A DNA stretch of 64,000 bases from an uncultured Verrucomicrobiaceae bacterium (lineage in GTDB: Bacteria > Pseudomonadota > Gammaproteobacteria > Pseudomonadales > CAMLJR01): positions 2,344 to 66,343 of the forward strand of contig CAZWBA010000003.1 in NCBI GenBank assembly GCA_964631955.1. The letters run 5' to 3'. This document shows, in pieces, positions 3,718 to 59,974 of this stretch (positions are counted from its first letter, which is position 1; every line of letters begins with the position of its first letter). The translations under genes were made by a program, and so were the position numbers. Below the pieces are notes generated by a model. That model ran no database searches. It saw only the letters and a list, made by a program, of their open reading frames with translations, and was not told the DNA's origin.

Positions 3718-4734
3718 ATGTTGTCCGACTTTTTTACCCAGCCACGCAATTCGCGCTTCGCTGCCTTCATCGCCGCCGCGCTGTTATTTTTCCTGCTGCT
3801 CGAACTCAAACTGCTCGTCGTCATGTACGCGGCGATGCTGGTATACGCGCTGGTCATTCTGCTCTCTTCGCATCTCATCGATCGCGGCGCGCAGGACGGC
3901 CATTCGCGCTGGTTCGCTGTGGTCTTCGTCGCCGTTCTGGTGGCATCGACACTGGTGGCAGCGGGCTTTGGGCTGCATCTGTTCCTGCGCAATGGCCTCA
4001 ACCTGCACGCGCTGCTGCTGCAGATGAGCGACATCATCGAATCCTCGCGCTCGTGGCTGCCGGAAATCATCAGCGCGAAACTGCCACAACAGGACGATCT
4101 GCTGGTGAGCGCAGGTTCGCTGCTGCGCCAGCATGCCGCAGACATCGGCACGGTCGGCCTGGGCGCGCTCAAGAATATCGGCTACACGCTGATCGGCATT
4201 CTGCTCGGTTCGATGTTCGCGATCAGCGCGCGCGTCGAGGCACACCGCCTCGGCCCGGTCAGCACCAACCTGATGGAGCAATTCATAGCGATAGAAAGCG
4301 CGTTCTGGCGGGTGCTGTCCGCGCAGGTACGCATCTCGGCGCTCAACACCGTTCTCACGGCAATCTATCTGATCGGTATTCTGCCCATGTTTGGCATCGA
4401 CCTGCCCTTCGCGAAAACGCTCATCGTCGTCACCTTCATCGCCGGGCTGCTGCCCGTCATCGGCAACCTGATTTCCAACACTGCCATCACCATTATCAGC
4501 ATCAGCCAGTCGCTACTCGTCGCCACGGCCTCGCTGACTTTCCTGATCGTGATTCACAAGCTCGAATATTTTGTAAACGCCCGCTTCGTCGGTCAGCAGA
4601 TCAACGCGAAACCGCACGAAATTCTCGTGATGATGCTGCTTATGGAAAGATTGTTCGGCCCCGCCGGCGTGGTGGCCGCGCCGGTGTTTTACGCCTGGCT
4701 GAAAGCGGAATGGCACCGCTGGGATGCGAGATAA
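3718..4734 (+). CDS. AI-2E family (PerM/UPF0118-like) membrane transporter
   Basis: Polytopic membrane ORF with the LLPVIGNLISN segment typical of AI-2E transporters. ATG at 3718; the track ORF opens earlier at 3640. Confidence 0.6.
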   Translation: MLSDFFTQPRNSRFAAFIAAALLFFLLLELKLLVVMYAAMLVYALVILLSSHLIDRGAQDGHSRWFAVVFVAVLVASTLVAAGFGLHLFLRNGLNLHALLLQMSDIIESSRSWLPEIISAKLPQQDDLLVSAGSLLRQHAADIGTVGLGALKNIGYTLIGILLGSMFAISARVEAHRLGPVSTNLMEQFIAIESAFWRVLSAQVRISALNTVLTAIYLIGILPMFGIDLPFAKTLIVVTFIAGLLPVIGNLISNTAITIISISQSLLVATASLTFLIVIHKLEYFVNARFVGQQINAKPHEILVMMLLMERLFGPAGVVAAPVFYAWLKAEWHRWDAR

Positions 4735-4749
4735 CGGGAAATACTGCGC

Positions 4750-6075
4750 TCAGCGCCAGCGCAGCCAGCACTCCTCGGGAAACGGTCCCTCCTTGTAATC
4801 CATCGCGCCGTCGGTGCGGATATCGTTGCGGCGGAAAATCTGTCGCATCATTTCGGGAATCATCACCATGCCGATGTAACGTCCCAGGCATTCGTGCGCA
4901 CCGAAACCAAAATGAAAATGGTTGTACCAGTTGCGATCCGGAATGAATTCATCGGGATTTTCGAACGCGCGCTTATCAAACATCGCCGACTGGGTCGCAA
5001 AGAAAACGTACGTGCCCGCGGGAATCGTGGTCGCGTAATCGGTACCGAGGCCGAGTGTGAAACCGCTGGCGGATTTACGAAACAGATACGGCGTGAACGG
5101 GCGGAAACGCAACGCTTCCCACACGATGCCATCGAACTCCGCCGGGTCATCCTTCTGTGCAGCCGCTTTGGCTCGCGCGCATAACTCATCGGACTTCAAT
5201 AAATATTCGACGGCCTGCCCGACCGCCTGCGCCGTGGTTTCGATCGCGCCGACCAGCAGACCGCCGATATTCACACCGAGTCGCGTGATATCGATGCCCA
5301 TCGCATCGGGAAAATTATTGCGCAGCAGCCGCGATACGATGTCGTCGCCGAGCGGCTCGTGCATCTTTCCGCGCAGGCGATTGACCACAATTCTCAGCTT
5401 GTACCACAGCGTGCGAATCACATTCGCTTTTTCAACCTTCACGGCAAGCAGACGGCGCGCCATCAGCCCGGCGATGTACATCCCCAGCTCGTTGCTCGCG
5501 CGCTTGTGCTCGCGCTCGATCCACTGCCGCTTCTTATCGTCGATCAAATCGAACGGCTGATTGTGGAAGGTGTTGTACTGCGCCCAATAGGACCAGTCGA
5601 TCAACGCTTTGCGATCGACGCCGGTGAAACCGAAATACTCCTGCACCAGCATCGCCGGCACCGCGCGGCAATAATCGTTGACGAATTCGATCCTGCCGTT
5701 TGCCTCATCGAGAAGGGTTTTGCCGAAACGTTCGATCATGCGGCGCACATCGGGCAGATCGTCGCGATTGAGCAGACTTTGCATCAGCGGCTTTTCGCGC
5801 GAATGCAGCGCGTCATCGTCGTGCGACATCAAATACAAACCGTCGAGCATCTTTGGCTTGTACAGCTCAACGGTAAATACTTTCGGCATGTTGAGCCCCT
5901 GTGTCACATCATCGAAGCGCGTGACCAGCGTGACCAGCGGCGTGACGAGAATGGGGCGGTGCTCGCGCAATTCCTTGAAGAACGGCAAAGGCTCTTCCCA
6001 CAGCCATTTATAGACGAGCGCATATTTTTCGGACTCGGGCGCGGCATCGTAACGCTCCAGATAATGGGTGCCCAT
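4750..6075 (-). CDS. Cytochrome P450
   Basis: 441 aa. Cys-ligand loop FGFGAHECLGRYIG, I-helix GAIETT, ExxR as EALR. Confidence 0.9.
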   Translation of the reverse strand: MGTHYLERYDAAPESEKYALVYKWLWEEPLPFFKELREHRPILVTPLVTLVTRFDDVTQGLNMPKVFTVELYKPKMLDGLYLMSHDDDALHSREKPLMQSLLNRDDLPDVRRMIERFGKTLLDEANGRIEFVNDYCRAVPAMLVQEYFGFTGVDRKALIDWSYWAQYNTFHNQPFDLIDDKKRQWIEREHKRASNELGMYIAGLMARRLLAVKVEKANVIRTLWYKLRIVVNRLRGKMHEPLGDDIVSRLLRNNFPDAMGIDITRLGVNIGGLLVGAIETTAQAVGQAVEYLLKSDELCARAKAAAQKDDPAEFDGIVWEALRFRPFTPYLFRKSASGFTLGLGTDYATTIPAGTYVFFATQSAMFDKRAFENPDEFIPDRNWYNHFHFGFGAHECLGRYIGMVMIPEMMRQIFRRNDIRTDGAMDYKEGPFPEECWLRWR

Positions 6076-47816: not shown

Positions 47817-48473
47817 TTACTGCCTGCCATCCCACGCCAGGAAATTTTGCAGCAGACGCAAACCGGCATCGCTGCTTTTCTCGGGGTGAAATTGCACGGC
47901 GAACAGGTTGTTGTGCGCGAGCGCAGCGTGGATCTGCACGCCGTACTGCGCGGTTGCAGCAACGTAATCGGGCGTGTCGCAATGAATATAAAAACTGTGC
48001 ACGAAGTAAAAGCGACTGTCCTGCGCTATGCCATCCCATAAGGGATGTGCAATCGTTTGTTGTACCTGATTCCATCCCATATGCGGCACTTTCAATTTTT
48101 CGCCGCTGGCATCCTTGAGCGGGTCACCGAAAAACTTCACCTTCCCCGGCAGTATCGACAGACAATCAACGCCACCATTTTCTTCGCTGTGCTGCATGAG
48201 CGCCTGCATGCCAACGCAAATAGCGAGTAACGGCTTGCCGCTCGCGATGACGTCGCGCACAACCTTGTCGATATTCAGACGCAGAATTTCCGCCATGCAG
48301 TCGCGAATCGCACCGACGCCCGGGAATACCACGCGGTCGGCTTTCGCGATGATGTGTGCATCGCTCGTGATGAAAACCTCGATACCGGGATTCACTTTAC
48401 GCAGCGCACTCGCAACCGAATGCAGGTTGCCCATACCGTAATCGATTACCGCAACGCTCGATTTGTCAGGCAT
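47817..48473 (-). CDS. hisH: Imidazole glycerol phosphate synthase, glutaminase subunit
   Basis: [14 protein letters not shown], catalytic AICVGMQ, and the C-terminal FHPEKS. Confidence 0.95.
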
Positions 48474-48494
48474 AAATTACCATGCACCTTTTAA

Positions 48495-49085
48495 TTACAG
48501 CGTACCTTTTGTTGATGGCGTGACTCCCGCCATGCGCGGGTCGAGTTCGCACGCCATGCGCAACGCGCGACCGAATGCCTTGAACACGGTTTCAGCCTGA
48601 TGGTGACTGTTCACGCCGCGCAAATTGTCGATATGCAATGTCACCTTCGCGTGATTGACGAAGCCGCGAAAAAATTCTCCAAATAAATCAACATCGAAAT
48701 TACCGATGCGACCGCGCGTGAACGGCACCTGCAATTCGAGACCGGGGCGTCCTGAAAAATCGATAACAACACGCGACAACGCTTCATCGAGCGGCACATA
48801 GGAATGGCCGTAACGGGTCATGCCTTTTTTATCGCCGACCGCCTGCGCGAACGCCTGCCCCAGTGTGATGCCGACATCTTCAACGGTGTGGTGATCATCG
48901 ATATGCAGATCACCTTTGGCCTGAATATCGATATCGATAAGGCCGTGGCGGGCGATCTGATCAAGCATGTGTTCGAGGAACGGCACGCCGATGGCAAAAC
49001 GGGATTGGCCGGTGCCGTCGAGGTTGATGCTGACCGTGATTTGCGTTTCGAGGGTATCGCGGGTGACGGTGGCTTTACGAGCCAT
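48495..49085 (-). CDS. hisB: Imidazoleglycerol-phosphate dehydratase
   Basis: [22 protein letters not shown]... and the [11 protein letters not shown] motif. Confidence 0.95.
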
Positions 49086-49157
49086 GTCGATCTCCAGATA
49101 AGGAAATCGGTATTATAAGGAACTCCCTTTGGAATTGCCTCCCGGTGCCCCGCTCCC

Positions 49158-49550
49158 ATGCCAGTTATTCTTGAAGTCATCAATCGCCCCGACGCTAACG
49201 ATCTCGCCGATCTTGAAAAAATCTATGCGGACTATCCGCTTCCACCCGTGAAATCGCTATCGGACTGGATCGACGCACAACGCGAGGCGGGACAAACGCT
49301 GATCGCGGGCCGCTTCAACGGTCATTTGCTGGCATCACTTTTTGTCGACAAAAACGGGCAGATCACTCACCTCTGCGTGCGCGCCTCGACGCGCCGACGC
49401 GGCACCGCCCGTCAGTTGCTGCAATTACTGCAGGCCAGCGCGGCGCAATTTCAGCTTCCCAAACTCGAAGCGCGCGATGAAACACTGGCGCCACTGTGGC
49501 AGCAGCTCGGATTCACCCATGTCGTCAACGGTTGGCAATGGGTACATTGA
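49158..49550 (+). CDS. Small GNAT-like acetyltransferase-fold protein (possibly PanZ-type)
   Basis: 130 aa. The segment HLCVRASTRRRGTARQLL resembles the acetyl-CoA-binding Q/RxxGxG/A motif. Confidence 0.45.
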   Translation: MPVILEVINRPDANDLADLEKIYADYPLPPVKSLSDWIDAQREAGQTLIAGRFNGHLLASLFVDKNGQITHLCVRASTRRRGTARQLLQLLQASAAQFQLPKLEARDETLAPLWQQLGFTHVVNGWQWVH

Positions 49551-49566
49551 TTACGCGGAAACGTGA

Positions 49567-50652
49567 TTGCCTGGAAACAATGATCCCGTGGACACACTGA
49601 ATCGCTACGAAATCGATATCGCCATGCGCGTGCTCGCGTGGTTCGATCGACATGGCCGCAAGAATCTGCCGTGGCAGCAGGCGATTTCGCCCTATCGCGT
49701 CTGGGTTTCCGAAATCATGCTGCAGCAGACGCAGGTGCAGACCGTCATTCCCTACTATGAGCGGTTTATGCGGGAATTGCCGAGCGTGCAGGATCTCGCC
49801 ACAGCGAACCCCGATCACGTCATGCACCTGTGGACCGGTCTCGGCTATTACAGTCGAGCGCGCAATCTGCAACGCACCGCACAGATCGTTTGCGAGCAAT
49901 ACAGCGGCGAATTTCCCGATGACGTCGAACGGCTGAGCGATCTGCCCGGTATCGGCCGCTCGACTGCAGGTGCGATTGCATCGATCGCTTTCGGTAACCG
50001 GGCGGCGATTCTCGATGGCAACGTCAAACGCGTGCTCGCCCGTTTTCACGGCGTCGAGGGCTACCCAGGCGAAACCGCTGTGCATAACAAGCTATGGGAT
50101 TTCGCGGAAAAGCACACACCGCAGAAACGTATCGAAGCCTATACGCAGGCGATGATGGATCTCGGTGCGACCCTCTGCACACGCAGCAAACCCGCTTGCG
50201 GTATTTGTCCGCTGACCGGGGATTGCGTCGCACGACAAGAAAGCCGCACCGCAGAGTTTCCCAGTAAAAAGCCCAAAAAAGCACTACCGGTAAAAAGCGC
50301 GCAGATGCTTATCATCCTCGACAAGCACGGCGATATTCTTCTCGAAAAGCGCCCCCCCACGGGAATCTGGTCAAGCCTGTGGGTATTTCCCCAGATCGAA
50401 TCGGGCGATGACCCGATTGCCTACTGTGCGAACCATTTACAGCTCGAAACCGATATCCTCGAACGCTGGGACAGCTATCGGCATACCTTCAGCCACTATC
50501 ATTTCGATATTGAACCCGTGCGACTGCGATTAAAAAAGCAACCCACCGCAATTAGCGAGAACGAGCGCCAGCTTTGGTATAACCTGCGCAACCCGGCAGC
50601 GATTGGCCTGGCGGCGCCAGTCGTAAAACTGCTGAAACAGCTCGAACAGTGA
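49567..50652 (+). CDS. mutY: A/G-specific adenine DNA glycosylase MutY
   Basis: HhH-GPD core (LPWQQ...YRVWVSEIMLQQTQV), a 4Fe-4S cluster loop (C..C..C...C) and a C-terminal NUDIX-like domain. The start is uncertain: TTG 49567, GTG 49588 or ATG 49624. Confidence 0.9.
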   Translation: MPGNNDPVDTLNRYEIDIAMRVLAWFDRHGRKNLPWQQAISPYRVWVSEIMLQQTQVQTVIPYYERFMRELPSVQDLATANPDHVMHLWTGLGYYSRARNLQRTAQIVCEQYSGEFPDDVERLSDLPGIGRSTAGAIASIAFGNRAAILDGNVKRVLARFHGVEGYPGETAVHNKLWDFAEKHTPQKRIEAYTQAMMDLGATLCTRSKPACGICPLTGDCVARQESRTAEFPSKKPKKALPVKSAQMLIILDKHGDILLEKRPPTGIWSSLWVFPQIESGDDPIAYCANHLQLETDILERWDSYRHTFSHYHFDIEPVRLRLKKQPTAISENERQLWYNLRNPAAIGLAAPVVKLLKQLEQ

Positions 50653-50661
50653 GATCACACG

Positions 50662-50952
50662 ATGGCGCGCATGGTGCTCTGCAGAAAATATCAACGCGAA
50701 ATGGAAGGCCTCGGTGCCCCGCCTTATCCAGGGGCTAAAGGCCGGGAAATTTTCGAACACGTATCGAAACAGGCCTGGCAGGAATGGCAGGAACATCAAA
50801 CGCAACTCATCAATGAGAAGCGCCTGTCGATGATGGACCCCGCCGCACGCAAATTCCTGCAGGAAGAAATGGATAAATTCTTCGCCGGCGAAGAATTCGC
50901 ACGAGCGGAAGGATATGTGCCTCCAGAAAACCCGCTTCCGCCGAAAAATTAA
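50662..50952 (+). CDS. yggX: Fe(2+)-trafficking / oxidative-damage protection protein YggX
   Basis: [17 protein letters not shown]...[21 protein letters not shown] is collinear with E. coli YggX. The mutY-yggX adjacency is conserved. Confidence 0.9.
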
Positions 50953-50978
50953 CCATCGCCCGGGGCATTTCTTTCAAC

Positions 50979-51007
50979 TTGACTCGCACGAGGCATAACG
51001 GTTTAAT
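50979..51007 (+). promoter_or_regulatory. Sigma70-type promoter for tRNA-Phe
   Basis: TTGACT-17 nt-TTTAAT, ending about 30 nt upstream of the tRNA 5' end. Confidence 0.55.
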
Positions 51008-51038
51008 ACGCGCCTCTCGCGATCAGGCGAGCCTTCAA

Positions 51039-51114
51039 GCCCAGGTAGCTCAGTCGGTAGAGCAAAGGATTGAAAATCCTTGTGTCGGCAGTTCGATTCT
51101 GCCCCTGGGCACCA
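51039..51114 (+). tRNA. tRNA-Phe (anticodon GAA)
   Basis: GCCCAGGTAGCTCAGTCGGTAGAGCAAAGGATTGAAAATCCTTGTGTCGGCAGTTCGATTCTGCCCCTGGGCACCA. Cloverleaf folded by hand. The 3' two-thirds is the prophage attachment core. Confidence 0.95.
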
Positions 51115-51772
51115 TCTTGTTTATGTCTACGATTGTTTTTAATTCTTCCCACATTTTCGAAAGCGTCGGGTCTTTTTCACGCTCTGCGTGTTGATCGAAT
51201 ATTACTTCGCCATGTGGTAGCTTCAGTTCGGTTTCAATTCTGAAAGCGGTTTTGTCGTCTAGTGTCGTGACTTTTCCGACGCGATGTTGCGATATCGCCC
51301 CTCGCGTTAATCCGAGAACCATAGCTATTTTGTAGTCGCTCTCAATCCCCTTGTCCGCTTTTAAGCGGTCGATCCATTCAATGCTTTTCATTTTCGCACC
51401 TCTTTCCGTTCGTCGCTCATGGGGCCGTATAGCGGCCTTTGCGTCAATTATCGCTTGACGTATCGCCAAGTCAACGTCTAGGCTCCTATCCGTATAGTCA
51501 ACTATCCGGTTTTGAGCATGGAAATCCGCTTTTCGCCATATAACTCGCCATTCGTGCCCGCTGGCCCCCCGGGTGTCCATTGGATCGGTCGCGAATTCCG
51601 CGATATGCCCCATAGCGCGCACGTTTATGAATATCAACGCGAGCTTGGTCGCCGGCATGTCGAGCAGCTCAATCTTGAGCTGACGTCTGCCGTTGCCCTT
51701 CTTCCAATGCTCGACGAAATGGCTGCTGACGGCATCAAGGCTGCTGCGCGTCGTGCTAAAGACATTCGCCAT
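51050..51772 (-). CDS. Prophage repressor-like protein with phage 186 CI-type HTH
   Basis: 240-aa open frame. The central segment MKSIEWIDRLKADKGIESDYKIAMVLGLTRGAISQHRVGK resembles the CI-repressor HTH. The internal ATG at 51391 has a strong AAGAGG RBS and would give 113 aa. The last about 22 codons are antisense to tRNA-Phe. Confidence 0.5.
   Translation of the reverse strand: MANVFSTTRSSLDAVSSHFVEHWKKGNGRRQLKIELLDMPATKLALIFINVRAMGHIAEFATDPMDTRGASGHEWRVIWRKADFHAQNRIVDYTDRSLDVDLAIRQAIIDAKAAIRPHERRTERGAKMKSIEWIDRLKADKGIESDYKIAMVLGLTRGAISQHRVGKVTTLDDKTAFRIETELKLPHGEVIFDQHAEREKDPTLSKMWEELKTIVDINKMVPRGRIELPTQGFSILCSTD
51070..51115 (+). repeat. attL core (46 bp, part of the intact tRNA-Phe)
   Basis: TTGAAAATCCTTGTGTCGGCAGTTCGATTCTGCCCCTGGGCACCAT is identical to 58234-58279. 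The flanking bases differ on both sides. Confidence 0.9.
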
Positions 51773-52038
51773 TTTTTGAATCCCTATAAATCTTCATCGG
51801 TGAACCATTCATCTGATTCACGTAATGCGAAAGGGATACGTAGGGCATCGTCCCCGCAGGGGATGGAGCGAAGCGAAACCCGTAGCAGCCCGGTCGGCGA
51901 AGCCGATTCGCCAAACAAGTTTATTAATTCAAAAAGTAAAAAAATTAAATCGCAAAAAAATAACGATAAACCTGTTCTTCAAATTGTCCCTAAAAAACCT
52001 TGTGTAATTCCTGAATTTTGGAAGGGTGGATTGCCTAT

Positions 52039-52194
52039 ATGAAAGTCCGTGTTGATCTTATTGAAATTTTGAAAAGATATCGGCTTGAAAACTGGATGGG
52101 TTTTGATTCTGGCCATTATATCGGTCGATTGATTCAGGAATTAGAAGTCGAAGAGGAAATGGAAAATCCTGATCGGCCATGTGGGGATTCTTGA
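52039..52194 (+). CDS. Small phage ORF (51 aa) upstream of rep
   Basis: Manual translation gives MKVRVDLIEILKRYRLENWMGFDSGHYIGRLIQELEVEEEMENPDRPCGDS. GGAAGGGTGGA lies upstream. The stop is 2 nt before the rep ATG. Below the ORF-track length cut-off. Confidence 0.4.
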   Translation: MKVRVDLIEILKRYRLENWMGFDSGHYIGRLIQELEVEEEMENPDRPCGDS

Positions 52195-52196
52195 TC

Positions 52197-53234
52197 ATGC
52201 CGAAAAATCGCGATGCGATAGGAACCCCGTCAGTAATACGGGGTGAAAGTCCAGCCGGGGAAGTGCGAATCGATACGCTGTCCTTCACGTTGCTTAAGTC
52301 GAAGCTCGAAATGATCGTTGGCAGCGTGTCGGGCTGGACACAAACCTCAGAAGAAATGCTTTTTTCTTTTCAGAAGTTTTTGAATTTTGTTTTCGGTGCT
52401 CACGTTTTTAAAGTCGGTACTGAAATTAAGGGCGGTCGTAATTTTTTCAATCATTCGATTCAGCTCGAAAATAAAGCCGGATTTATAGCTTTTGGTGGCA
52501 ATAACAAAGTTATGGATTTCGACGGCGAAACAACGCGCGTTGTTGAAGAGCGTGTTCAGGTTTATTTGCCCGGTGAAGGTTGCATGCAGGTGCCGGATTG
52601 GCGGCGCGTCCATGATCGATTGAAAAAGCTGGATGCCCGCATCACTCGCGTCGATCCGTGCTTTGACGATCACGAAGGCGCAACCAATATTCAACAAATT
52701 CGCGCATGGTTTACGGGTGGATTATTCGAAGGTCAGGGGCGGCCGCCGAAAGCAAAATTTATCGATGACTGCGGTTCGGATAAGGGCTGCACTTTTTACG
52801 TAGGTTCTCGTGAAAATGGCAAACAATATCGCGGCTATGAAAAAGGAAAACAGCTTGGTGATCCATTGTCACCGTGGATTCGTCATGAGGTCGAAATACA
52901 CGCGACGGATCGAGAAATTCCACTTGCAATCTTGGTCGAACCGGGCAAGTTTTTGGCGGGGACATATAACGCGCTCGCATGGATATCCACTATTGCGGAA
53001 AAGATTAAAACTGCGCGCTTAAAGCTCGATATTCAATATTTAAAACTGCGCAAAATCATGCGCACGCAATACGGCAAGCTTCTGAATTTTGCATATCACA
53101 ATATCACGCAAGATTTTGAGGCGTTGTTTTACGAATTTTTAAATCCGGTTGGATTTCCCGACCGTCTCAAATGGGCTGCTGCCCCACAACCTAAAGAGGT
53201 GTTAAATCATGTTGCTGCTCAAAGGCATCGTTAA
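52197..53234 (+). CDS. Rolling-circle replication initiation protein (Rep_trans / RstA-like)
   Basis: ITRVDPCFDD, YVGSRENGKQYRGYEKGKQLG and WIRHEVEIH match the pattern of filamentous-phage replication initiators. ATG at 52197; the track ORF opens at 52179. Confidence 0.75.
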   Translation: MPKNRDAIGTPSVIRGESPAGEVRIDTLSFTLLKSKLEMIVGSVSGWTQTSEEMLFSFQKFLNFVFGAHVFKVGTEIKGGRNFFNHSIQLENKAGFIAFGGNNKVMDFDGETTRVVEERVQVYLPGEGCMQVPDWRRVHDRLKKLDARITRVDPCFDDHEGATNIQQIRAWFTGGLFEGQGRPPKAKFIDDCGSDKGCTFYVGSRENGKQYRGYEKGKQLGDPLSPWIRHEVEIHATDREIPLAILVEPGKFLAGTYNALAWISTIAEKIKTARLKLDIQYLKLRKIMRTQYGKLLNFAYHNITQDFEALFYEFLNPVGFPDRLKWAAAPQPKEVLNHVAAQRHR

Positions 53235-53556
53235 AGGCGTTCGTGTCGAGGAAGGCAAAGTAAATACTCAAACCGGGCAGATTACTGTGAAGCATTTTGT
53301 CGGTATTGCCTCTCCGAAGTCTGGCGGATATGACGGCGAAGAAATTATTACTGAGCTGCGTGTTTCTGCAAAACAATTGCAAACGGGTCTTGGCGCGTTT
53401 TACGAATCATTGCGCGGTCAGGAAGTTGTTGTGCCGGTTTTCCCGCAATCGCGTGCGTATAAGGATCGGGTTTATACGGACTGGTATTTTTCGAATGATG
53501 GAAAGCCTTTGCAGTTGGATCGCCAGGCTAAACCGTCTGTGTCAGCTGCAAAATAA
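53209..53556 (+). CDS. Putative ssDNA-binding protein (gene V position)
   Basis: 115 aa, immediately after rep and overlapping it, preceded by AGAGG. Size and position match inovirus gene V/RstB-slot proteins. No diagnostic motif was recognised. Confidence 0.45.
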   Translation: MLLLKGIVKGVRVEEGKVNTQTGQITVKHFVGIASPKSGGYDGEEIITELRVSAKQLQTGLGAFYESLRGQEVVVPVFPQSRAYKDRVYTDWYFSNDGKPLQLDRQAKPSVSAAK

Positions 53557-53559
53557 ATC

Positions 53560-53778
53560 GTGGCCGGTTTATCACTTTATTGCGCTGGTGTTATCGACAC
53601 CGAAGCGCTCACGTGTTCGTCAGGGTGGCAGCAGATTGTTGCGCAGCCCCCTTTCGATCCGTCACAGCTCGATCCCGCGCAAGTTGTGGCGTATTTATCC
53701 TCTGGACTATTTGCAGGAACCACGGTTTTTGCAGCGGTCTGGTCAGCGCGGATTCTCCTTAATTTTCTGAAGAGGTAA
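53560..53778 (+). CDS. Small phage membrane protein (72 aa)
   Basis: GTG start 4 nt after the previous stop. C-terminal hydrophobic helix VVAYLSSGLFAGTTVFAAVW followed by basic residues. Confidence 0.4.
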   Translation: MAGLSLYCAGVIDTEALTCSSGWQQIVAQPPFDPSQLDPAQVVAYLSSGLFAGTTVFAAVWSARILLNFLKR

Positions 53779-53783
53779 TTAAA

Positions 53784-53912
53784 ATGGCATGGGTTGCAGA
53801 TGTTGATTTCGCAGCAGTTGTAACGGCGATTGGTACTCTCGCTGGCGCTCTGGCGGTCGTTTATGTCGCTATCAAGGGCGCAAAGATTGGTCTCAGTTTC
53901 ATTCGTGGCTAA
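53784..53912 (+). CDS. Major coat protein (42 aa, leaderless, Pf3-like organisation)
   Basis: Manual translation gives MAWVADVDFAAVVTAIGTLAGALAVVYVAIKGAKIGLSFIRG: acidic N-terminus, hydrophobic core, basic C-terminus. AGAGG RBS upstream and a hairpin downstream. Below the ORF-track cut-off. Confidence 0.7.
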   Translation: MAWVADVDFAAVVTAIGTLAGALAVVYVAIKGAKIGLSFIRG

Positions 53913-53920
53913 TCGGGATA

Positions 53921-53945
53921 GGGCCGGATTTCCGGCCCGATCTTT
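53921..53945 (+). terminator. Hairpin terminator/attenuator after the coat gene
   Basis: GGGCCGG-ATTT-CCGGCCC followed by GATCTTT. This position is typical of inoviruses, which over-express the coat gene. Confidence 0.55.
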
Positions 53946-53948
53946 ATC

Positions 53949-54026
53949 ATGGATCAAATTTATTATTTTTCATTTTTCGTTCTCGGTTTAGTTTCCGCGT
54001 ATCAATTATTTTTCGGGCGTTCGTGA
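53949..54026 (+). CDS. Possible 25-aa hydrophobic minor virion protein
   Basis: MDQIYYFSFFVLGLVSAYQLFFGRS. The stop overlaps the next gene's start (GTGATG). No clear RBS. Confidence 0.25.
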   Translation: MDQIYYFSFFVLGLVSAYQLFFGRS

Positions 54027-55480
54027 TGCTCCGTTTTTTTCTGATCGTGCTGCTCGCTGTTTTTTCGTTTGATGCCGTTGCTGGTTATAAAGTTGAGACA
54101 ACTCAGGGCTGTTTTGAAACGCGTGAAGAGGCCTGCGGAACTGGTGCAATTGTTTATGGCGCTGGTGGGTATGCCGTGCAAATTACTGGTGTCGGTTTCC
54201 AAATCTATCGGTGTAATGCTGTTTGGCTTGAAGGGCCTAATCAGGGCTATGAGCGTACGTTTACGTTACTTAGTTGCTCTACGTCTTGTCCTGCGGGTGA
54301 GCAGCGATATAACGGTATATGTGCTGCGCCTGTGTCATGTAATGGCGGCACGGTCGACGCGAATAATGTTTGTCAGTGTCCGTCCGGTCAGTCTGTTGTT
54401 AATGGTCAATGTCTAGATGATTGTGAAGAGGGCGCATCTCGCGGAAATGGCGATAAAGCTTACTCTCTGCGTACTGGTGTTAGCCTTTCGAATGAATGTC
54501 GTTCGTTGTCAGGCCAGTGTGCTGCGCAAGCGTCCGCTGGTGGTTCTTTCGGCTCTGCGAAATTGTTGACATCGTTGCTTGGTTGCGGCGTTTCTTGTCA
54601 GCTTTCTGTTTCTGGTGATTTTAAATATGCGTGTAAATACACTGGTGGAGTACCAGAAGCTTATACATGCATTGGTGATGAAATTTCTTGCGGTAAGGCG
54701 GTCGGGAGTAATGTGCCCGAATCACAAAATACGAATGTAACTGCTCCTGAGAACGGCTCTTGTCCTGCGGGTACTTCGGCGGGTACGGTGAATGGTCAGC
54801 CTTATTGCGCATCGTCGGCTAATACAAACATTTCAAATAGTGGTAATACTGGCCAGAATCCAAACGGCTCCACTACTGAGGTTGAAACGACTATTACGCA
54901 AACCGCTACTAATCCTGACGGCTCGACGTCGACTACAACAATTACAACACGTAGCGGTGCTGTCGGTACGTCGTCTAATCCCAGTGTTGTAAAAATCGAT
55001 CCTAATTCGGTTTCTAACGTATCGATTAAGGGGTCCGGAAATTGTGACCCTACTAAATCCGATTATGCGCAATGTATTGGAATGCCGAGCGGCTCAGGTT
55101 CTGGCAGTGGAACAGGTGATGGTGATGGTGACGGCGATGGTGAGGGTGGTGAGTGCGATCCAGAATCGTCAGACTATTTACAGTGTTTGGCCGGCGAACA
55201 ATCAGCATATGGAGATTTCGGTAACGGCGAAAAGACGTTGCAAACAGTTGCCGATAATTTTTATACCGGTGTTGAAGAAAGCTCTATCGGTCAATTAGCG
55301 AGTTCCATTTCCGGTGGTCTGCCGGCTGGTTCGTGTCCGGTTGTAAATTTCGAAATGTTTGGTCGAAATTTTACAATGGATTTCTGGTGCGAAATTTACA
55401 GTGATAATGGCGACGTTATTTCTACGGTTGCCCGCGCTGGCTGGGTGTTAATGGGCATTCTGATTATTCTTGGTGCTTGA
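54023..55480 (+). CDS. Adsorption / minor coat protein (pIII analogue)
   Basis: Signal peptide MMLRFFLIVLLAVFSFDAVA, Cys-rich N-terminal domains, S/T/N-rich region, linker GSGSGSGTGDGDGDGDGEGGE, and a C-terminal anchor AGWVLMGILIILGA. Confidence 0.75.
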   Translation: MMLRFFLIVLLAVFSFDAVAGYKVETTQGCFETREEACGTGAIVYGAGGYAVQITGVGFQIYRCNAVWLEGPNQGYERTFTLLSCSTSCPAGEQRYNGICAAPVSCNGGTVDANNVCQCPSGQSVVNGQCLDDCEEGASRGNGDKAYSLRTGVSLSNECRSLSGQCAAQASAGGSFGSAKLLTSLLGCGVSCQLSVSGDFKYACKYTGGVPEAYTCIGDEISCGKAVGSNVPESQNTNVTAPENGSCPAGTSAGTVNGQPYCASSANTNISNSGNTGQNPNGSTTEVETTITQTATNPDGSTSTTTITTRSGAVGTSSNPSVVKIDPNSVSNVSIKGSGNCDPTKSDYAQCIGMPSGSGSGSGTGDGDGDGDGEGGECDPESSDYLQCLAGEQSAYGDFGNGEKTLQTVADNFYTGVEESSIGQLASSISGGLPAGSCPVVNFEMFGRNFTMDFWCEIYSDNGDVISTVARAGWVLMGILIILGA

Positions 55481-55776
55481 TTATGGCCGCTACGCAATGT
55501 GATTTATTAGATATTCCTTGTCATTACAACAATGGCATCGAAAAACTAAAAGATTTTGTGTTGTTTGTTTGGGATTGGATTCTCGACGGCGCGCTGTATT
55601 TGCTGAACTTGGTCCCTGTCCCTGAATGGGCTATTTCGCAGGGTGGTATTTTTGCGCAAGTGCCATCCGGCGTGGCTTTTTTCATGTCGATCTTTGAAAT
55701 TAATTTCGGGCTGAGTGTTCTTGCGTCGGCGTATTTAATTCGATTCATTATTCGTCGCTTGCCGGTGGTGGGGTAG
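55477..55776 (+). CDS. pVI-like minor coat membrane protein
   Basis: 99 aa with 2-3 hydrophobic helices. Lies between the pIII-like and Zot genes with overlapping stop/start codons. Confidence 0.55.
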   Translation: MIMAATQCDLLDIPCHYNNGIEKLKDFVLFVWDWILDGALYLLNLVPVPEWAISQGGIFAQVPSGVAFFMSIFEINFGLSVLASAYLIRFIIRRLPVVG

Positions 55777-55778
55777 TC

Positions 55779-56879
55779 ATGACGATATCGATTTATTCCG
55801 GTTTACCCGGATCGGGTAAAAGCTACACTGTCGTTTCGAACGTTATAATTCCGGCGCTTAAAGAAAAGCGAAAAATATATACAAATATTCCGCTTGATCT
55901 TGATTCGATTAAATCCGAATACGGACAGGATGTTTTTCAGTTTGAAACGCGGGATATTATTGATAATCCGCGATGGTTCGATGAGGTTTTGCCGGCTGGT
56001 GCGCTGATCGTTCTTGATGAGGCTTGGCGCTTGTGGCCTTCCGGTCTTAAAGCGAATCGTGTTGAGGAATCTCATAAAGCTTTCCTTGCTGAGCATCGTC
56101 ACAGGGTTGGCGCTGATAATCGATCGACCGAAATTGTTTTAGTTTCTCAGGATGCCGCGCAGCTCGCGGCATTTGTGCGCCAGCTCATTGAAAAAACATA
56201 TCGAGCTAAAAAGCTCGATGTGGTAGGTCAGGCGAAAAAATATCGGCTAGATATTTATGAGGGCGCTGTTACTGGGGCAAACCCGCCGCTTGATAAACGT
56301 GTTAGGGAAATTTATGGTGAATATAAGCCGGAAATTTATAGACTCTATAAATCCCATACGCAATCGCAGACGGGCGAGGCTGGAAATGAAGAAAGAGCGG
56401 ATAATCGCGCAAATGTTCTCAAGGGCGGCACGTTCAAAGCAATACTTGTTGCTATTGTCGTGCTTCCTGTGCTGGTGTTTTTTGGTGCTCGTCAAACGTA
56501 TAAAAATTATCATCCGGAAGAAACGAAAATCGAGGCAGCGCAAAATTCGGATTTGCAATTGCAGCAACAACCTGTTGAGCCGCGCAAGCCTAAGAATAAA
56601 TTCTTCGATGGCAAGAATGTTCGGATTGTTTACAACAACACCAGCGCGCAAACGGTAGATTATCGAGTTGAAGTTAAAGGCGATGGACAGCGTGTTGTTC
56701 TTGGGCTTAACGATCTTGCTCTTTTGGGTGTTGAGGTTTCTCCGATAAATGAATGTTTAATTAAATTAATCGGAGATGGTTTTGTGTTGTTTGTCATGTG
56801 CACTGATTACGAATATCGATCCACGTTCGCAAGGGTCGGCGACGGTATTACTGGCAAGGATTCAGCGGCATCAATGTGA
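55779..56879 (+). CDS. Zot / pI-like phage assembly ATPase
   Basis: Walker A at the extreme N-terminus (IYSGLPGSGKSY), LDEAW Walker B, and a central TM helix (FKAILVAIVVLPVLVFFGA). Confidence 0.85.
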   Translation: MTISIYSGLPGSGKSYTVVSNVIIPALKEKRKIYTNIPLDLDSIKSEYGQDVFQFETRDIIDNPRWFDEVLPAGALIVLDEAWRLWPSGLKANRVEESHKAFLAEHRHRVGADNRSTEIVLVSQDAAQLAAFVRQLIEKTYRAKKLDVVGQAKKYRLDIYEGAVTGANPPLDKRVREIYGEYKPEIYRLYKSHTQSQTGEAGNEERADNRANVLKGGTFKAILVAIVVLPVLVFFGARQTYKNYHPEETKIEAAQNSDLQLQQQPVEPRKPKNKFFDGKNVRIVYNNTSAQTVDYRVEVKGDGQRVVLGLNDLALLGVEVSPINECLIKLIGDGFVLFVMCTDYEYRSTFARVGDGITGKDSAASM

Positions 56880-56924
56880 CAATGCGCGGCTGCGGAGCGA
56901 GCCGTCGCATGTCACATCGATCTA

Positions 56925-57134
56925 TTATTTTTTCAATGCGGCGTAAATTATTGCTGTAAAAATGAGCCATAAAATCGTACTCGTTGCCGCGAGCGCAATT
57001 CCGCCAATGTAAACGCCTATGGCTATTTCTTTCCATGTGATTTGAGCTGCCTGACCAATTGCGATTGGTTTTTCTTTTTCGTTTTTTATAAATTCGCGTA
57101 GTTCGGCGATTGCTTGAAGGTTTTCTTCGTTCAT
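56925..57134 (-). CDS. Small antisense-oriented membrane protein (69 aa), prophage cargo slot
   Basis: GGAGA RBS 8 nt upstream. Charged helical N-terminus and a hydrophobic C-terminal region of about 30 residues (IAIGVYIGGIALAATSTILWLIFTAIIYAAL). Confidence 0.55.
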   Translation of the reverse strand: MNEENLQAIAELREFIKNEKEKPIAIGQAAQITWKEIAIGVYIGGIALAATSTILWLIFTAIIYAALKK

Positions 57135-57388
57135 TTTTTTCTCCGGCCTATCGATTGGACAAAGTGTAGGTCGTCAAGCTCGATCCGTCAGCTGCTTGCA
57201 GGTGATGGGCGGGCTTGATCAGTCTCCGGATTAAAAACGCTCATTGGCGGGGTGCCGGTGTCTTTTCGCCGGCATCCCTGCCTAGCGGCGAGCGTAATAG
57301 TGTTTTCTGTTGATTTAAGATCTTGTTCGATAGCGAAATCCTATTTTCTGACTATATTTTCTTGCGGGTCGTTGTTGGGATTTGGCTC

Positions 57389-58237
57389 ATGGATCGCTAT
57401 ACGTGGAATCAGGCCGCGCTCCGCTGGCTTCGGGAAAAATCGCATAAAGCGGATATAAAACACGATGGGGAAAAGCTCGCGTGGCTTGAAAATATACTTG
57501 GTGAATATTTTCTTGATGAGATAACGCGCGACGTTGTCGAGCGCGTCATTGAATTAAAAATTCAGACTTGTGCGGCTTCTACGGTGAATCGTTACCTTGC
57601 TTTGATTCGCGCAATTTTGCGCATGGCCCGAGATGACTGGGAATGGTTGCATCGCGTGCCGCGAATCCGAATGCTTAAAGAGCCGCCTGCACGTGTTCGG
57701 TGGCTCGCCCCATCTGACGCGGTCCGGTTGTTATGTGAGTTGCCGGATCATTTGCGTTCTATGGCGGTTTTCGCGCTGGCGACGGGTTTGCGGCAAAGCA
57801 ATGTGACGCGCTTGCGCTGGGAACAGGTAGATACTGCTCGATCGATGGCGTGGATACACGCCGAGCAATCCAAAAACCGAAAGTCTTTCCCGGTGCCGCT
57901 CAATGCTGACGCAATGGCTGTGATTCATGCGCAGCGCGGTCGGCATCGCGAATGGGTGTTTGTGTATAACGGGAAGCCGGTATCAAGGACCAGTACGAAG
58001 GCTTGGGCGAAGGCGAAAGAGCGCGCGGGGATTTCAGATTTTCGATGGCATGATCTGCGGCATACATGGGCGTCATGGCACGCCCAAAATGGTACGGGCT
58101 TGCGGGAATTAATGGAGTTGGGCAGCTGGTCGACTATGCAAATGGTGTTGCGCTATGCGCATTTGGGTGGCGAGCATTTGAAGCGGCCAGCGTCGCATAT
58201 TGAGGGTATTTTGTCGCGTGCCGGTCGATCTTCTTGA
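57389..58237 (+). CDS. Tyrosine recombinase / phage integrase
   Basis: ATGLRQSN (Arg I), WHDLRHTWAS (HxxR), GSWS, and VLRYAHL (catalytic Tyr). The stop codon lies inside the attR repeat. The track ORF opens at 57323. Confidence 0.9.
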   Translation: MDRYTWNQAALRWLREKSHKADIKHDGEKLAWLENILGEYFLDEITRDVVERVIELKIQTCAASTVNRYLALIRAILRMARDDWEWLHRVPRIRMLKEPPARVRWLAPSDAVRLLCELPDHLRSMAVFALATGLRQSNVTRLRWEQVDTARSMAWIHAEQSKNRKSFPVPLNADAMAVIHAQRGRHREWVFVYNGKPVSRTSTKAWAKAKERAGISDFRWHDLRHTWASWHAQNGTGLRELMELGSWSTMQMVLRYAHLGGEHLKRPASHIEGILSRAGRSS

Positions 58238-58279
58238 AAATCCTTGTGTCGGCAGTTCGATTCTGCCCCTGGGCACCAT
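58234..58279 (+). repeat. attR core (46 bp, partial tRNA-Phe copy)
   Basis: Identical to 51070-51115. Lacks the tRNA 5' half, so it is not a functional tRNA. Confidence 0.9.
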
Positions 58280-58287
58280 TCCCACCA

Positions 58288-59469
58288 CTACTCCTTGTCG
58301 TTTTTCTGATCCGATGCCTTCACATCGGTCGTATCGTTTTCGTTCACCACATCCTTCAAACTCACGCTGCGCTCAAGAGAACTTGAAAATGCATTAACAA
58401 ATGCGTTGCGCAGAATATTTACGATGGTTACCCATACATCCGCATCGGGGTTATCAATGGTGCCGCTGAAGGGAATTTGCGTCGCCAGCTGATCGTGCGG
58501 ATGATTCTTGAATATTGTTGCGGCGAGCTGCACCAGGCCGGTCCACATGCGATTGAAAATATTGCCCTGCTTATCGGGAGGTGTGACAACCTCGATCTCT
58601 TTGGCGACCGGTTTTACATAGCCCTTGAATTTTCCTTCCGCCGCAGCGAATTCAGTAAATACGGAAAACTGCCCCGACTCGGCGTTGACGCTGGCATACG
58701 TGTCGAGCCATGGATTCAATTCGGGCAATGACACGTCCTTCAGTTCAGCCGCCACCTCAAATGTGGGGACTTCGACAGCGGTATTCAATTTACCATCGAT
58801 GCGCAGTGCGCCTTTATCGAGTGCGCGGCCCTGCAAGTCGAAACTGGCAAAGGCATTGGGGTCGTCAGCGGGTAATGCGTTGGTGAGATTGCGTAGCGAG
58901 AAATGAATATCCCGCAATACCAATGCCTGCTCGCGCTCTATGCCCGGCGCCCGAAAACGCACGATGCAATTGTCGCCACGAATTTCGTTAAACGTGAATG
59001 GAAATAACTTTTGCAGTGATGCATTCCAGTTATTTTCATTACCCAACTGGCGCTGCGAGCCATCTTCACTCTGAATGAAGCTCAATTGGGCATGATGAAA
59101 ATATGCCTTCCCCACCACCGAACCGTGCCACAAAGCCCGCCACTGAATAGCCAGCTCCAAACGCTCGGCATCGAGAAACGGTTCATTCTTTGCTGCACCT
59201 TTCTTTTCGATAACGATATTTTCAATTGCGTAGGCACCACGCCATAACGCGATATGAATCTTATCGACATGACCCGTGTAGCTATCGAGATTTTGCAATT
59301 GCCTGTTGACGTAGCGCTCGACGAGGGTCGGCAAGGCCAGCCGAAAACATATCAGCAATACGAGAGCTACCGCCACGCCGATGAAAAACCTGTTACGCAG
59401 CAGCGAAGAAAGCGATCGTGAACGCCGTGGAGTTAGCGTCAAAGCAATACCCATGATTGTCGATGTCAC
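58288..59469 (-). CDS. DUF748-like (AsmA-related) membrane-anchored protein
   Basis: N-terminal TM helix followed by LPTLVERYVNRQLQNLDSYTGHVDKIHIALWRGAYAIENIVIEKK. The family is recalled from memory. Confidence 0.55.
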   Translation of the reverse strand: MTSTIMGIALTLTPRRSRSLSSLLRNRFFIGVAVALVLLICFRLALPTLVERYVNRQLQNLDSYTGHVDKIHIALWRGAYAIENIVIEKKGAAKNEPFLDAERLELAIQWRALWHGSVVGKAYFHHAQLSFIQSEDGSQRQLGNENNWNASLQKLFPFTFNEIRGDNCIVRFRAPGIEREQALVLRDIHFSLRNLTNALPADDPNAFASFDLQGRALDKGALRIDGKLNTAVEVPTFEVAAELKDVSLPELNPWLDTYASVNAESGQFSVFTEFAAAEGKFKGYVKPVAKEIEVVTPPDKQGNIFNRMWTGLVQLAATIFKNHPHDQLATQIPFSGTIDNPDADVWVTIVNILRNAFVNAFSSSLERSVSLKDVVNENDTTDVKASDQKNDKE

Positions 59470-59535
59470 TTACCATGACAATTTATGAAAACCGCCCGGT
59501 GCTTTATCAAAGCCTTCTTGCAAAAGACACAAATA

Positions 59536-59775
59536 CTATCGGTGATTGCCGAGCGGAACGTGTTGAGGATGCCGCAGCAATCTGCGATAACGACCGCGCA
59601 GCCGGAATATCTGCAACCCTGTCACTATCAACAATGCACTGCTCAAAACTGCCAGCAGCCCCTCGACATTCAGCCCTACCCAGCATCCCGCAGCGATGTA
59701 AATGAGCGGCAGCAACTCGTAAAGCCATGCCGGAGTGGTGATGTCGATTGTGTTTCCCACGCGATGGATGGACAT
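59536..59775 (-). CDS. Small hypothetical membrane protein
   Basis: ATG at 59775 gives 79 aa with two hydrophobic helices and a basic tail (RLRGRYRRLLRH). The track ORF extends to 59883. Confidence 0.4.
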   Translation of the reverse strand: MSIHRVGNTIDITTPAWLYELLPLIYIAAGCWVGLNVEGLLAVLSSALLIVTGLQIFRLRGRYRRLLRHPQHVPLGNHR

Positions 59776-59974
59776 GATGTCATTCTCGGTTTTCAGTCCT
59801 GAGGAACTCAGTTGAAGCAATAAGCAGACCTGAAACCGAAAATGCTTGCGGACCAACAGATTGGAAAAAATGACAGCCTTCACGATTTCCCCATCAGGAA
59901 AAAAGCCCGACAGTTTTACCGCCTCTGCGACATTTTTTCTGGAAAAACCCGCGTATTTTTTTCAGAACAAATGA

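Follow-up and report, generated by a model that had tools for sequence, protein, structure and literature searches.

A probable temperate filamentous phage with its own short tyrosine integrase, inserted at a tRNA-Phe gene

Does the DNA that follows a tRNA-Phe gene in this uncultured bacterium constitute an intact temperate filamentous phage, and does the integrase at its far end belong to that phage? The window, which is the whole 64,000-nt stretch of DNA that was analyzed, contains an exact 46-bp direct repeat at 51070-51115 and 58234-58279, with no further occurrences; zero such 46-mer repeats are expected by chance (100 shuffles of the window). As the first-pass annotation had proposed, the left copy is the 3' part of a tRNA-Phe gene, which was confirmed by ARAGORN and Rfam. 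The boundary features are:

51039..51114, + strand: intact host tRNA-Phe (GAA), whose 3' part is attL (ARAGORN; Rfam tRNA, 73 bits)
51070..51115, + strand: attL, the 46-bp core identity block, from anticodon-loop position 32 to 1 base beyond CCA (exact repeat, differing flanks)
58234..58279, + strand: attR, second copy of the 46-bp tRNA-Phe 3' part (exact repeat, differing flanks)

Placement of tRNA-Phe(GAA) by ARAGORN and Rfam puts the left end of the repeat at tRNA position 32, where the anticodon loop begins; its right end is CCA plus one base. The ends are as sharp as had been claimed, with unlike adjacent bases on either side (a/c on the left, c/t on the right). As in other elements that target tRNA genes, the direct repeat equals the tRNA 3' part and the tRNA is left intact. 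The element itself (51116-58279) has a unit length of 7,164 nt. It is AT-richer than its flanks, as had been noted (GC 42-50% compared to 53-57%), and GC skew changes from negative in the flanks to positive within it. The mutY-yggX-tRNA-Phe arrangement is widely conserved in hosts, and therefore the left boundary is host DNA; the MutY of this host is at most 62% identical to that of species representatives, among the matches listed. We conclude that the element is very probably an integrated, apparently intact temperate filamentous phage (Tubulavirales) with its own integrase. This conclusion is based on the repeats, the tRNA, the gene families, the intact catalytic residues of the integrase, and the circular attP of close relatives.

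Every gene of the inovirus set listed at first reading was found in its expected place, and Pfam and PHROG searches matched all four predicted families (Zot, Rep_trans, Phage_integrase, and HTH). Between the repressor and the integrase, the element contains:

52039..52194, + strand: 51-aa ORF immediately 5' of the replication gene (ORF list; gene call also in public contig L084)
52197..53234, + strand: Rep_trans rolling-circle replication initiator, 345 aa (PF02486, 2.1e-14; PHROG 453, 3.3e-75)
53209..53556, + strand: ssDNA-binding protein, gene V analogue (PF17426 Putative_G5P, 30.3 bits)
53560..53778, + strand: 72-aa small virion or membrane protein in a gp7-like position (PHROG 4800, 3e-9)
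53784..53912, + strand: major coat protein, 42 aa, without signal peptide (PHROG 2186, 1.9e-6)
53921..53948, + strand: GC-rich hairpin with a T-rich tail, just 3' of the coat gene (seven G-C pairs)
53949..54026, + strand: 25-aa hydrophobic ORF in a gp9-like position (68% identity to L086 over 25 aa)
54026..55480, + strand: pIII-like adsorption protein, 485 aa (PHROG 7187, 2.4e-11; PHROG 815)
55483..55776, + strand: pVI-like minor coat protein (PHROG 974, 4.3e-18)
55779..56879, + strand: Zot/pI assembly ATPase (PF05707, 6.6e-29, 101 bits; PHROG 197, 2.7e-65)
56925..57134, - strand: 69-aa antisense membrane ORF (PHROG 16286, 2e-5)

This tightly packed content is that of an inovirus. There is a pI/Zot-type morphogenesis ATPase (transmembrane segment, residues 213-240; Pfam cut-off for PF05707, 20.3 bits), Rep_trans and Putative_G5P score above their Pfam cut-offs (25 bits for PF17426), and the small hydrophobic coat gene lies 5' of that for a large pIII-like protein with a signal peptide, 26 Cys, a Gly/Ser/Asp linker, and a C-terminal membrane anchor (hydrophobic segments, residues 1-24 and 465-485). 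The unit length falls within the inovirus range of ~5-15 kb, as expected. Rep has an alternative ATG at 52179 and is 73% identical to the Rep of relative L093. The 51-aa ORF had no family match in Pfam or PHROG searches. The 72-aa ORF, previously called a membrane ORF, is present and 72% identical to that of L086, but its hydrophobicity is only moderate; the ORF in its position in Pseudomonas phage 36-2 carries a gp7-like annotation. The coat protein (hydrophobic core, residues 7-32) matches the mature part alone of PHROG 2186 (positions 42-79 of 80). Hydrophobic stretches are found at residues 6-23 of the 25-aa ORF and 41-68 of the 69-aa antisense ORF. The latter has positional equivalents in L094-L097, and all short-integrase relatives have a small antisense gene in this slot.

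As stated at first reading, no pIV-type secretin is encoded: no ORF of the element matched one in profile searches, and no unassigned ORF is big enough. Because none is encoded, extrusion would require a host secretin; the window does not contain one, and a crude search that used a phage secretin as query gave no hit. CTXphi, whose extrusion uses host EpsD, also lacks a secretin, and Pf phages are not known to encode one.

The last gene before attR is:

57389..58237, + strand: short tyrosine integrase, 282 aa, stop codon inside att (PF00589 Phage_integrase, about 7e-31 to 8.4e-31)

The integrase had been predicted correctly, but its start is most likely ATG 57389 and not TTG 57323. All catalytic residues of a tyrosine recombinase (R..K..HxxR..H/W..Y) are present, and R135, K162, H221, R224, W247, and Y256 are invariant in an alignment of 20 sequences. 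Alignment to 344-aa homologues starts at homologue residue 56; the N-terminal ~55 aa are absent, and no remnant was found upstream in any frame. Sixteen short integrases, 60-79% identical to that of the window, share a common start position and invariant catalytic R-K-H-R-W-Y residues, which implies conservation of the short form rather than recent truncation. All members of this ~280-aa clade with inspected contigs (5 of 5) sit in filamentous-phage genomes. The N-terminal region of lambda- and P2-type integrases binds arm sites. We infer that the missing region would likewise be arm-binding, because it resembles the P2 integrase N-terminus; Pfam and PDB sequence searches gave no name to this region of the 344-aa homologues. 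Coding sequence leaves no space for arm sites beside att, and no excisionase was recognized in the element. A lambda/P2-type integrase with arm-site control was considered and rejected, given the absent ~55 residues and the coding sequence that flanks att.

For this exact element, the search revealed neither a circular form nor an empty site, and its sole other public copy (L084) is a contig broken inside the repeats and uninformative on integrated versus circular state. Among the matches listed, no close host relative without the prophage appeared. By contrast, relatives L095, L096, and L240 do occur as attP circles. L094 is a sibling prophage from another genome at the same hisB-panZ-mutY-yggX-tRNA-Phe locus, with a 46-bp repeat and a short integrase that is 79% identical to that of the window and reads into attR. 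The circular contig L095 (unit of 7,567 nt, reported from three samples) connects the two ends of L094, integrase side to repressor side, through a single att copy, exactly as predicted for attP. An identical short integrase (P0124) is present in both an integrated element (L094) and a circular attP contig (L095). L096 is also circular (7.3 kb, 121-nt terminal overlap), with the order integrase, tRNA-Phe 3' half, repressor. The order Zot, small antisense gene, short integrase, att, and convergent repressor recurs in five relatives (L094-L097 and L240), three of which are circular contigs. The element is mosaic: its Rep-to-Zot block is nearest to the integrase-less phages L086 and L093, and its integrase and repressor are nearest to the L094-L096 lineage. 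The 7,593-nt genomes L086 and L087 are circularly permuted and keep the Rep-to-Zot order of the element (coat 93% and Zot 59% identical). Relatives carry the core between integrase and repressor in one orientation or the other, and their specificity is for tRNA-Phe or tRNA-Asn. The short integrase, the tRNA-derived att, and the convergent, att-crossing repressor form a conserved module that is shared by filamentous phages with different replication proteins and that occurs integrated and circular in public data.

These observations bear on two other explanations. If excision had been lost together with the integrase N-terminal DNA-binding domain, real phage genes would persist as chromosomal DNA only, or at most as a template for excision-free replication. 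Such a grounded or domesticated prophage would account for the alignment from residue 56 on, the lack of an upstream remnant, and the lack of a circular copy of this exact element. We consider it improbable, because the short form is a conserved clade, P0124 occurs in both states, the repeats are exact, and the core genes are all intact. The mosaic composition would also be expected if an integrase/att islet had settled first at tRNA-Phe and an unrelated integrase-less inovirus had landed inside it later, which implies that the integrase is not the phage's own. This composite is highly improbable: the Zot-to-repressor order is shared by relatives that include circles, the repeats enclose no non-phage content, and module exchange between phages explains the mosaic better.

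The att-crossing repressor is encoded next to attL:

51050..51391, - strand: HTH repressor, prophage form, 113 aa (PHROG 4441, 6.3e-18; PHROG 638, 4.3e-15)
51392..51772, - strand: conserved segment of 127 codons that precedes the repressor in the same frame (tblastn)

A divergent HTH repressor had been claimed and is supported by PHROG (E-value about 6.3e-18 to 2.2e-17), but the protein comprises 113 aa from 51391 inside a raw 240-aa ORF that includes the upstream segment. Its start, MKSIEW, is kept in 26 homologues, NCBI-sourced records include an identical 113-aa protein (P0243), and a sigma-70-like promoter (TTGACT-16-GATAAT, 51474-51447) is predicted for it. The 127-codon segment lacks a Pfam or PHROG match; relatives encode it as an ORF of its own, with tblastn identities of 41% to L086/L087 (101 aa) and 33% to L093 (73 aa). 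The last 22 repressor codons come from att and the tRNA 5' half (ending in MVPRGRIELPTQGFSILCSTD and a stop). Since the frame crosses att, the 113-aa prophage form has a predicted 148-aa excised counterpart, and integration is predicted to exchange the C-terminal 41 residues for six tRNA-encoded ones. Repressor lengths in relatives are 110/145 (L094/L095), 146 (L096), 173 (L097), and 174 aa (L240).

In mycobacteriophage BPs, attP likewise lies within the repressor frame, and the prophage form is C-terminally shortened (103 aa compared to 136 aa in the free phage) (PMC4557955). However, BPs belongs to the tailed dsDNA phages of Actinobacteria and has co-directional repressor and integrase genes and an ssrA-like tag on the long form (PMC4557955), whereas repressor and integrase of the element converge and overlap. 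No consistent ssrA-like end is visible in long-form tails, which end in -QLH, -PAA, -PTA, or -HQFV. Conservation of the tail is uninformative because the tail is antisense, codon for codon, to a conserved integrase motif; codon identity is 0.46 in the overlap compared to 0.34-0.39 elsewhere.

For the intact temperate phage that we favor, these features suggest the following cycle. The attP of the circular replicative form would be a copy of the host tRNA-Phe 3' 46 nt, and the 282-aa recombinase would swap strands in the anticodon loop, with integration restoring an intact tRNA at attL and leaving a partial copy at attR. The 113-aa repressor, transcribed from its own promoter towards the tRNA, would silence the rightward operon. 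Upon induction, and if this copy is active, the same integrase would excise the element, Rep_trans would then launch rolling-circle replication, and G5P would coat the ssDNA. The Zot/pI ATPase would extrude virions of the 42-aa leaderless coat, pIII, pVI, and small proteins through a host secretin.

It is conceivable, although doubtful, that the clade runs a minimal lysogeny switch, in which an arm-less ~280-aa integrase uses the tRNA-derived core alone and attP lies inside the repressor gene. If the two repressor forms indeed differ in stability or activity, then immunity may depend on integration, by analogy to BPs, and would do so in a Gram-negative ssDNA phage. To our knowledge, integration-dependent immunity has been described only for actinobacteriophages. 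The module offers a compact, testable model of minimal site-specific integration and possibly of integration-dependent repressor control, and its family context is a more useful by-product than the element itself.

Inoviruses that carry an integrase and sit at tRNA genes had been described before (Pf phages; Roux 2019). The kind is well documented (PMC7549136, PMC6813254); the lineage is undescribed, with an attachment site inside its own repressor gene. Calling it an undescribed inovirus was fair, because the nearest deposited phages are 38-44% identical in Zot and a phage-database search returned no whole-genome nucleotide match. Like the element, Pf prophages (Pf4, Pf6, and others) are filamentous, encode a tyrosine integrase of their own, and target the tRNA 3' part; their sites are tRNA-Gly, -Met, -Sec, tmRNA, or direct repeats, the Pf6 attP is a 46-bp fragment of tRNA-Met, and they possess excisionases XisF4/XisF5 (PMC7549136). 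The element differs in its tRNA-Phe site, its ~280-aa integrase, and the lack of a recognized excisionase, and the phage-database search detected no integrase or Rep relationship to Pf phages. It adds a well-delimited temperate inovirus, to all appearances intact, from a gammaproteobacterial lineage that has been sampled poorly, and places tRNA-Phe beside mutY-yggX alongside the Pf tRNA sites, without overturning the current understanding of inoviruses.

The nearest deposited genomes, Pseudomonas phages 36-2 (OR621019) and PMBT54 (OR047306), are of the same size (7.1-7.3 kb) and share the order ssDNA-binding protein, small protein, coat, pIII, pVI, Zot. Their Zot proteins are 38-44% (by aligned stretch) and their coats 43-45% identical to those of the element, with no Rep match or nucleotide-level similarity; both lack an integrase, and PMBT54 has its own PilQ-like secretin. 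An inovirus prophage of Microbulbifer sp. (L091, CP116898; Zot 45% identical) occupies the same mutY-yggX-tRNA-Phe site. Its bounding repeat is 49 bp long and covers the tRNA 3' part from within the anticodon stem on. Unlike the element, this prophage is 11.5 kb long, and it encodes a 330-aa integrase with Int_N on the tRNA side (only 28% identical), a Phage_GPA-type Rep, and a RelE/MqsA-like toxin-antitoxin pair. The parallel to CTXphi drawn by the first-pass annotation holds for gene order, which CTXphi and other Vibrio inoviruses share (repressor, Rep, small proteins, coat, pIII analogue, pVI-Ace analogue, Zot), but not for integration: CTXphi-type phages have no integrase and use host XerC/D at dif (PMC12715192). 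An XerC/D-dependent type was rejected for the element, which has its own integrase and sits in a tRNA gene. The hairpin at 53921..53948 is the strongest terminator-like site of the whole element and, judged from its sequence, is likely an attenuating terminator; Ff phages also have a strong hairpin right behind the coat gene.

The two copies of the 46-mer TTGAAAATCCTTGTGTCGGCAGTTCGATTCTGCCCCTGGGCACCAT that delimit the element (51070-51115 and 58234-58279) are the only ones in the window, against 0 expected in shuffled sequence, and the bases adjoining them are unlike on both sides. In the tRNA gene, the repeat extends from the first base of the anticodon loop to one base beyond CCA. GC content is 42-50% across the 7.1 kb between the copies versus 53-57% outside, and GC skew is negative in the flanks and positive between the repeats. 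MutY and YggX are encoded at the left and a DUF748 protein at the right. The mutY-yggX-tRNA-Phe arrangement is conserved across dozens of genomes of Gammaproteobacteria, which marks the left boundary as host DNA. Thus, the repeat in the 3' part of tRNA-Phe, the flanking genes, and the AT-richer interior, which the first-pass annotation had described, were all confirmed. In a scan of species representatives with MutY, no relative closer than 62% was present among the matches listed; none of 80 loci from the MutY-based scan had a DUF748 neighbor, which precluded an empty-site (attB) comparison. The public mutY-yggX contig L001 (window 48069-51075) stops six bases into the repeat and not at the 30 predicted from the assembler's k; a second variant of tRNA-Phe in the sample, as in a mixed community, is suggested by this early stop.

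Pfam and PHROG profile searches of the element genes, together with tRNA searches, gave the following features.

51039-51114, intact tRNA-Phe(GAA) (ARAGORN and Rfam)
HTH regulator (PHROG 4441/638)
Rep_trans initiator (Pfam, 2.1e-14; PHROG 453, 3.3e-75)
G5P-like ssDNA-binding protein (score exceeding the Pfam cut-off)
72-aa protein (PHROG 4800)
42-aa coat protein (coat family PHROG 2186)
485-aa pIII-like protein (signal peptide, 26 cysteines, Gly/Ser/Asp linker, C-terminal anchor)
pVI-like protein (PHROG 974)
Zot/pI ATPase (Pfam, 6.6e-29; transmembrane segment present)
antisense, 69-aa membrane ORF (PHROG 16286)
tyrosine integrase (Pfam, 8.4e-31)

These genes are packed, abutting or overlapping by a few bases. 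Because the PHROG 2186 match is confined to the mature part, the coat protein lacks a leader peptide. Of the terminator-like hairpins in the element, the strongest (53921-53938) lies directly 3' of the coat gene, a placement also seen in Ff phages. No ORF in the element matched a secretin, and the unassigned ORFs are all too short to encode one. Hence the proposed inovirus-type gene set without a secretin held up, and the reading as an integrated filamentous prophage is supported by the repeats, the tRNA, the gene families, and the relatives described below. Neither a query with the secretin of Pseudomonas filamentous phage PMBT54 nor Pfam searches of ten long host ORFs detected a host secretin in the 64-kb window, which is too small for a conclusion. 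A 107-aa low-complexity ORF (51719-52042, plus strand), which is a gene call in the public contig, overlaps the 51-aa ORF at its end by the bases ATGA; it is probably spurious, because it is antisense to a conserved leftward segment and nearly without homologues.

The mechanism is most likely ordinary for a filamentous prophage. The integrase would recombine a tRNA-derived attP with the anticodon loop of tRNA-Phe, and the HTH protein would repress the phage operon; induction would lead to excision, replication by a Rep_trans rolling-circle mechanism, and extrusion by Zot through a host secretin. Filamentous prophages that encode a tyrosine integrase and occupy a tRNA gene are already well described. 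Pf phages, which resemble the element in these respects, use tRNA-Gly, -Met (46-bp attP), and -Sec genes and tmRNA (PMC7549136), and in a large survey of hundreds of inovirus prophages the canonical criterion for att was "direct repeats in a tRNA or next to an integrase" (PMC6813254). By contrast, Vibrio inoviruses integrate via XerC/D at dif (PMC12715192). The element is therefore a predicted temperate filamentous prophage that adds a further example of a described kind.

For the integrase, the likeliest start codon is the ATG at 57389, which gives 282 aa and agrees with the gene call in the public contig. Its nearest full-length homologues (54-58% identical, 342-344 aa), which adjoin tRNA-Phe in other genomes, align to it only from their residue 56 onward, and no remnant of the missing N-terminus lies upstream of the gene. 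The closest homologues (60-79% identical) are without exception 275-285 aa long and share the start position, and the catalytic residues are invariant among the short integrases aligned, implying that the short form did not arise as an isolated truncation. Pfam and PDB sequence searches with the absent N-terminal region returned no match; by analogy to P2/lambda-type enzymes, we infer that it binds arm sites. Since this region is absent and att is flanked by coding sequence on both sides, recombination would involve the core only, without arm sites. Such a reaction fits the circular contig L240, in which a tRNA-Phe-like core is inverted between repressor and integrase (3885-3933). A metagenome scan with short-integrase patterns yielded mostly the 344-aa type, at identities of at most 61%.

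The five short integrases whose contigs we inspected all lie in filamentous-phage genomes, where Zot is followed by a small antisense gene, the short integrase, att, and a convergent repressor. L094 is a sibling prophage with a 46-bp repeat at the same locus of a related host (left-flank DNA 79% identical). In L095, a circular contig of 7,567 nt reported from three samples, one att copy links the L094 integrase end to the L094 repressor end, which is the predicted attP. Contig L096 is likewise circular (121-nt terminal overlap) and carries integrase, tRNA-Phe 3' half, and repressor in sequence. Thus, L095, L096, and L240 document the circular form for close relatives, though not for the window copy. 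In contig L097, att (about 5240-5290) is an apparent tRNA-Asn 3' half, read by eye with no tRNA-finder call.

The repressor frame is open up to att in each of the short-integrase phages examined. In the prophages, it closes six codons inside the 5' half of the tRNA, giving 113 aa in the window and 110 aa in L094, whereas in the circular form it runs on antisense to the integrase 3' end, giving a predicted 148 aa for the window element, 145-146 aa in L095 and L096, and 173-174 aa in L097 and L240. Two repressor lengths set by integration state recall the integration-dependent immunity of mycobacteriophage BPs, whose repressor forms are 136 and 103 aa (PMC4557955), compared to a predicted 148 aa and to 113 aa here. 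Functional evidence for a parallel is weak, because the circular-form tail is read, codon for codon, antisense to a conserved integrase motif, no ssrA-like tag is common to the tail ends of the phages compared, and synonymous-codon identity in the integrase/repressor overlap rises only slightly (0.46 versus about 0.36). It is unlikely that immunity would depend on integration as in BPs. The difference in codon identity is also too weak to argue for selection on double coding in the overlap.

The repressor lies in a leftward 240-codon ORF composed of two conserved pieces, each a separate ORF in relatives. The repressor proper starts with MKSIEW at 51391, a start common to 26 homologues, and has a good Shine-Dalgarno sequence and an upstream promoter match (TTGACT-16-GATAAT); an identical 113-aa protein (P0243) has been recorded from NCBI data. 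On the minus strand at 51050-51772, the repressor is in frame downstream of a conserved 127-codon segment, which is a separate ORF in contigs L087 and L093, and the window may also make a 202-240-aa fusion of the two. Their join is the border between the integrase/repressor and Rep_trans modules. In most members of the repressor family (P0245-P0269), the 85-aa HTH domain is followed by a variable tail and a hydrophobic segment resembling a membrane anchor; tethering to the membrane would be unusual for a phage repressor. The window and L094 repressors lack this segment, and att stands in its place.

The element also proved undescribed among deposited phages, as had been proposed. A whole-element nucleotide search found no relative, only an uninformative 146-nt integrase match to Burkholderia phages, and the best Zot matches were Pseudomonas phages 36-2 and PMBT54 (38-44% identity), the latter of which, unlike the element, encodes a PilQ-like secretin. 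Searches for exact matches to window proteins yielded no more than two short Logan contigs, both from a single run. One of them, the phage contig L084, ends at either side after k-1 bases of the repeat and is uninformative on circular versus integrated state. Single-protein scans of IMG/VR found no close relatives; Zot alignment there gave 48 UViGs whose morphogenesis block is more distantly related; several are circular, some have unrelated integrases, and none of the 48 had the short integrase. Many Zot relatives in a large protein collection lie on 5-8 kb contigs. Two of these contigs, L086 and L087, are one circularly permuted 7,593-nt genome with 30-nt closure overlaps, which has no integrase and a Rep-to-Zot block like that of the element (coat 93%, orf72 72%, Zot 59%, Rep 53%). 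The closest Rep is in L093 (73%).

The same mutY-yggX-tRNA-Phe site holds an 11.5-kb inovirus prophage with a 49-bp tRNA repeat in Microbulbifer sp. CP116898 (L091, 1482-13012), which differs from the element in its 330-aa Int_N-type integrase, Phage_GPA Rep, and RelE/MqsA-like toxin-antitoxin pair. To the right of attR, DNA is unlike between the window (58280-59535, DUF748 gene) and the related host of L094 (10895-12293, EthD and an F420H2-quinone-reductase-like gene), and the two are syntenic again from a gene for a small membrane protein (59536-59883 in the window). The region downstream of tRNA-Phe seems to be a variable spot.
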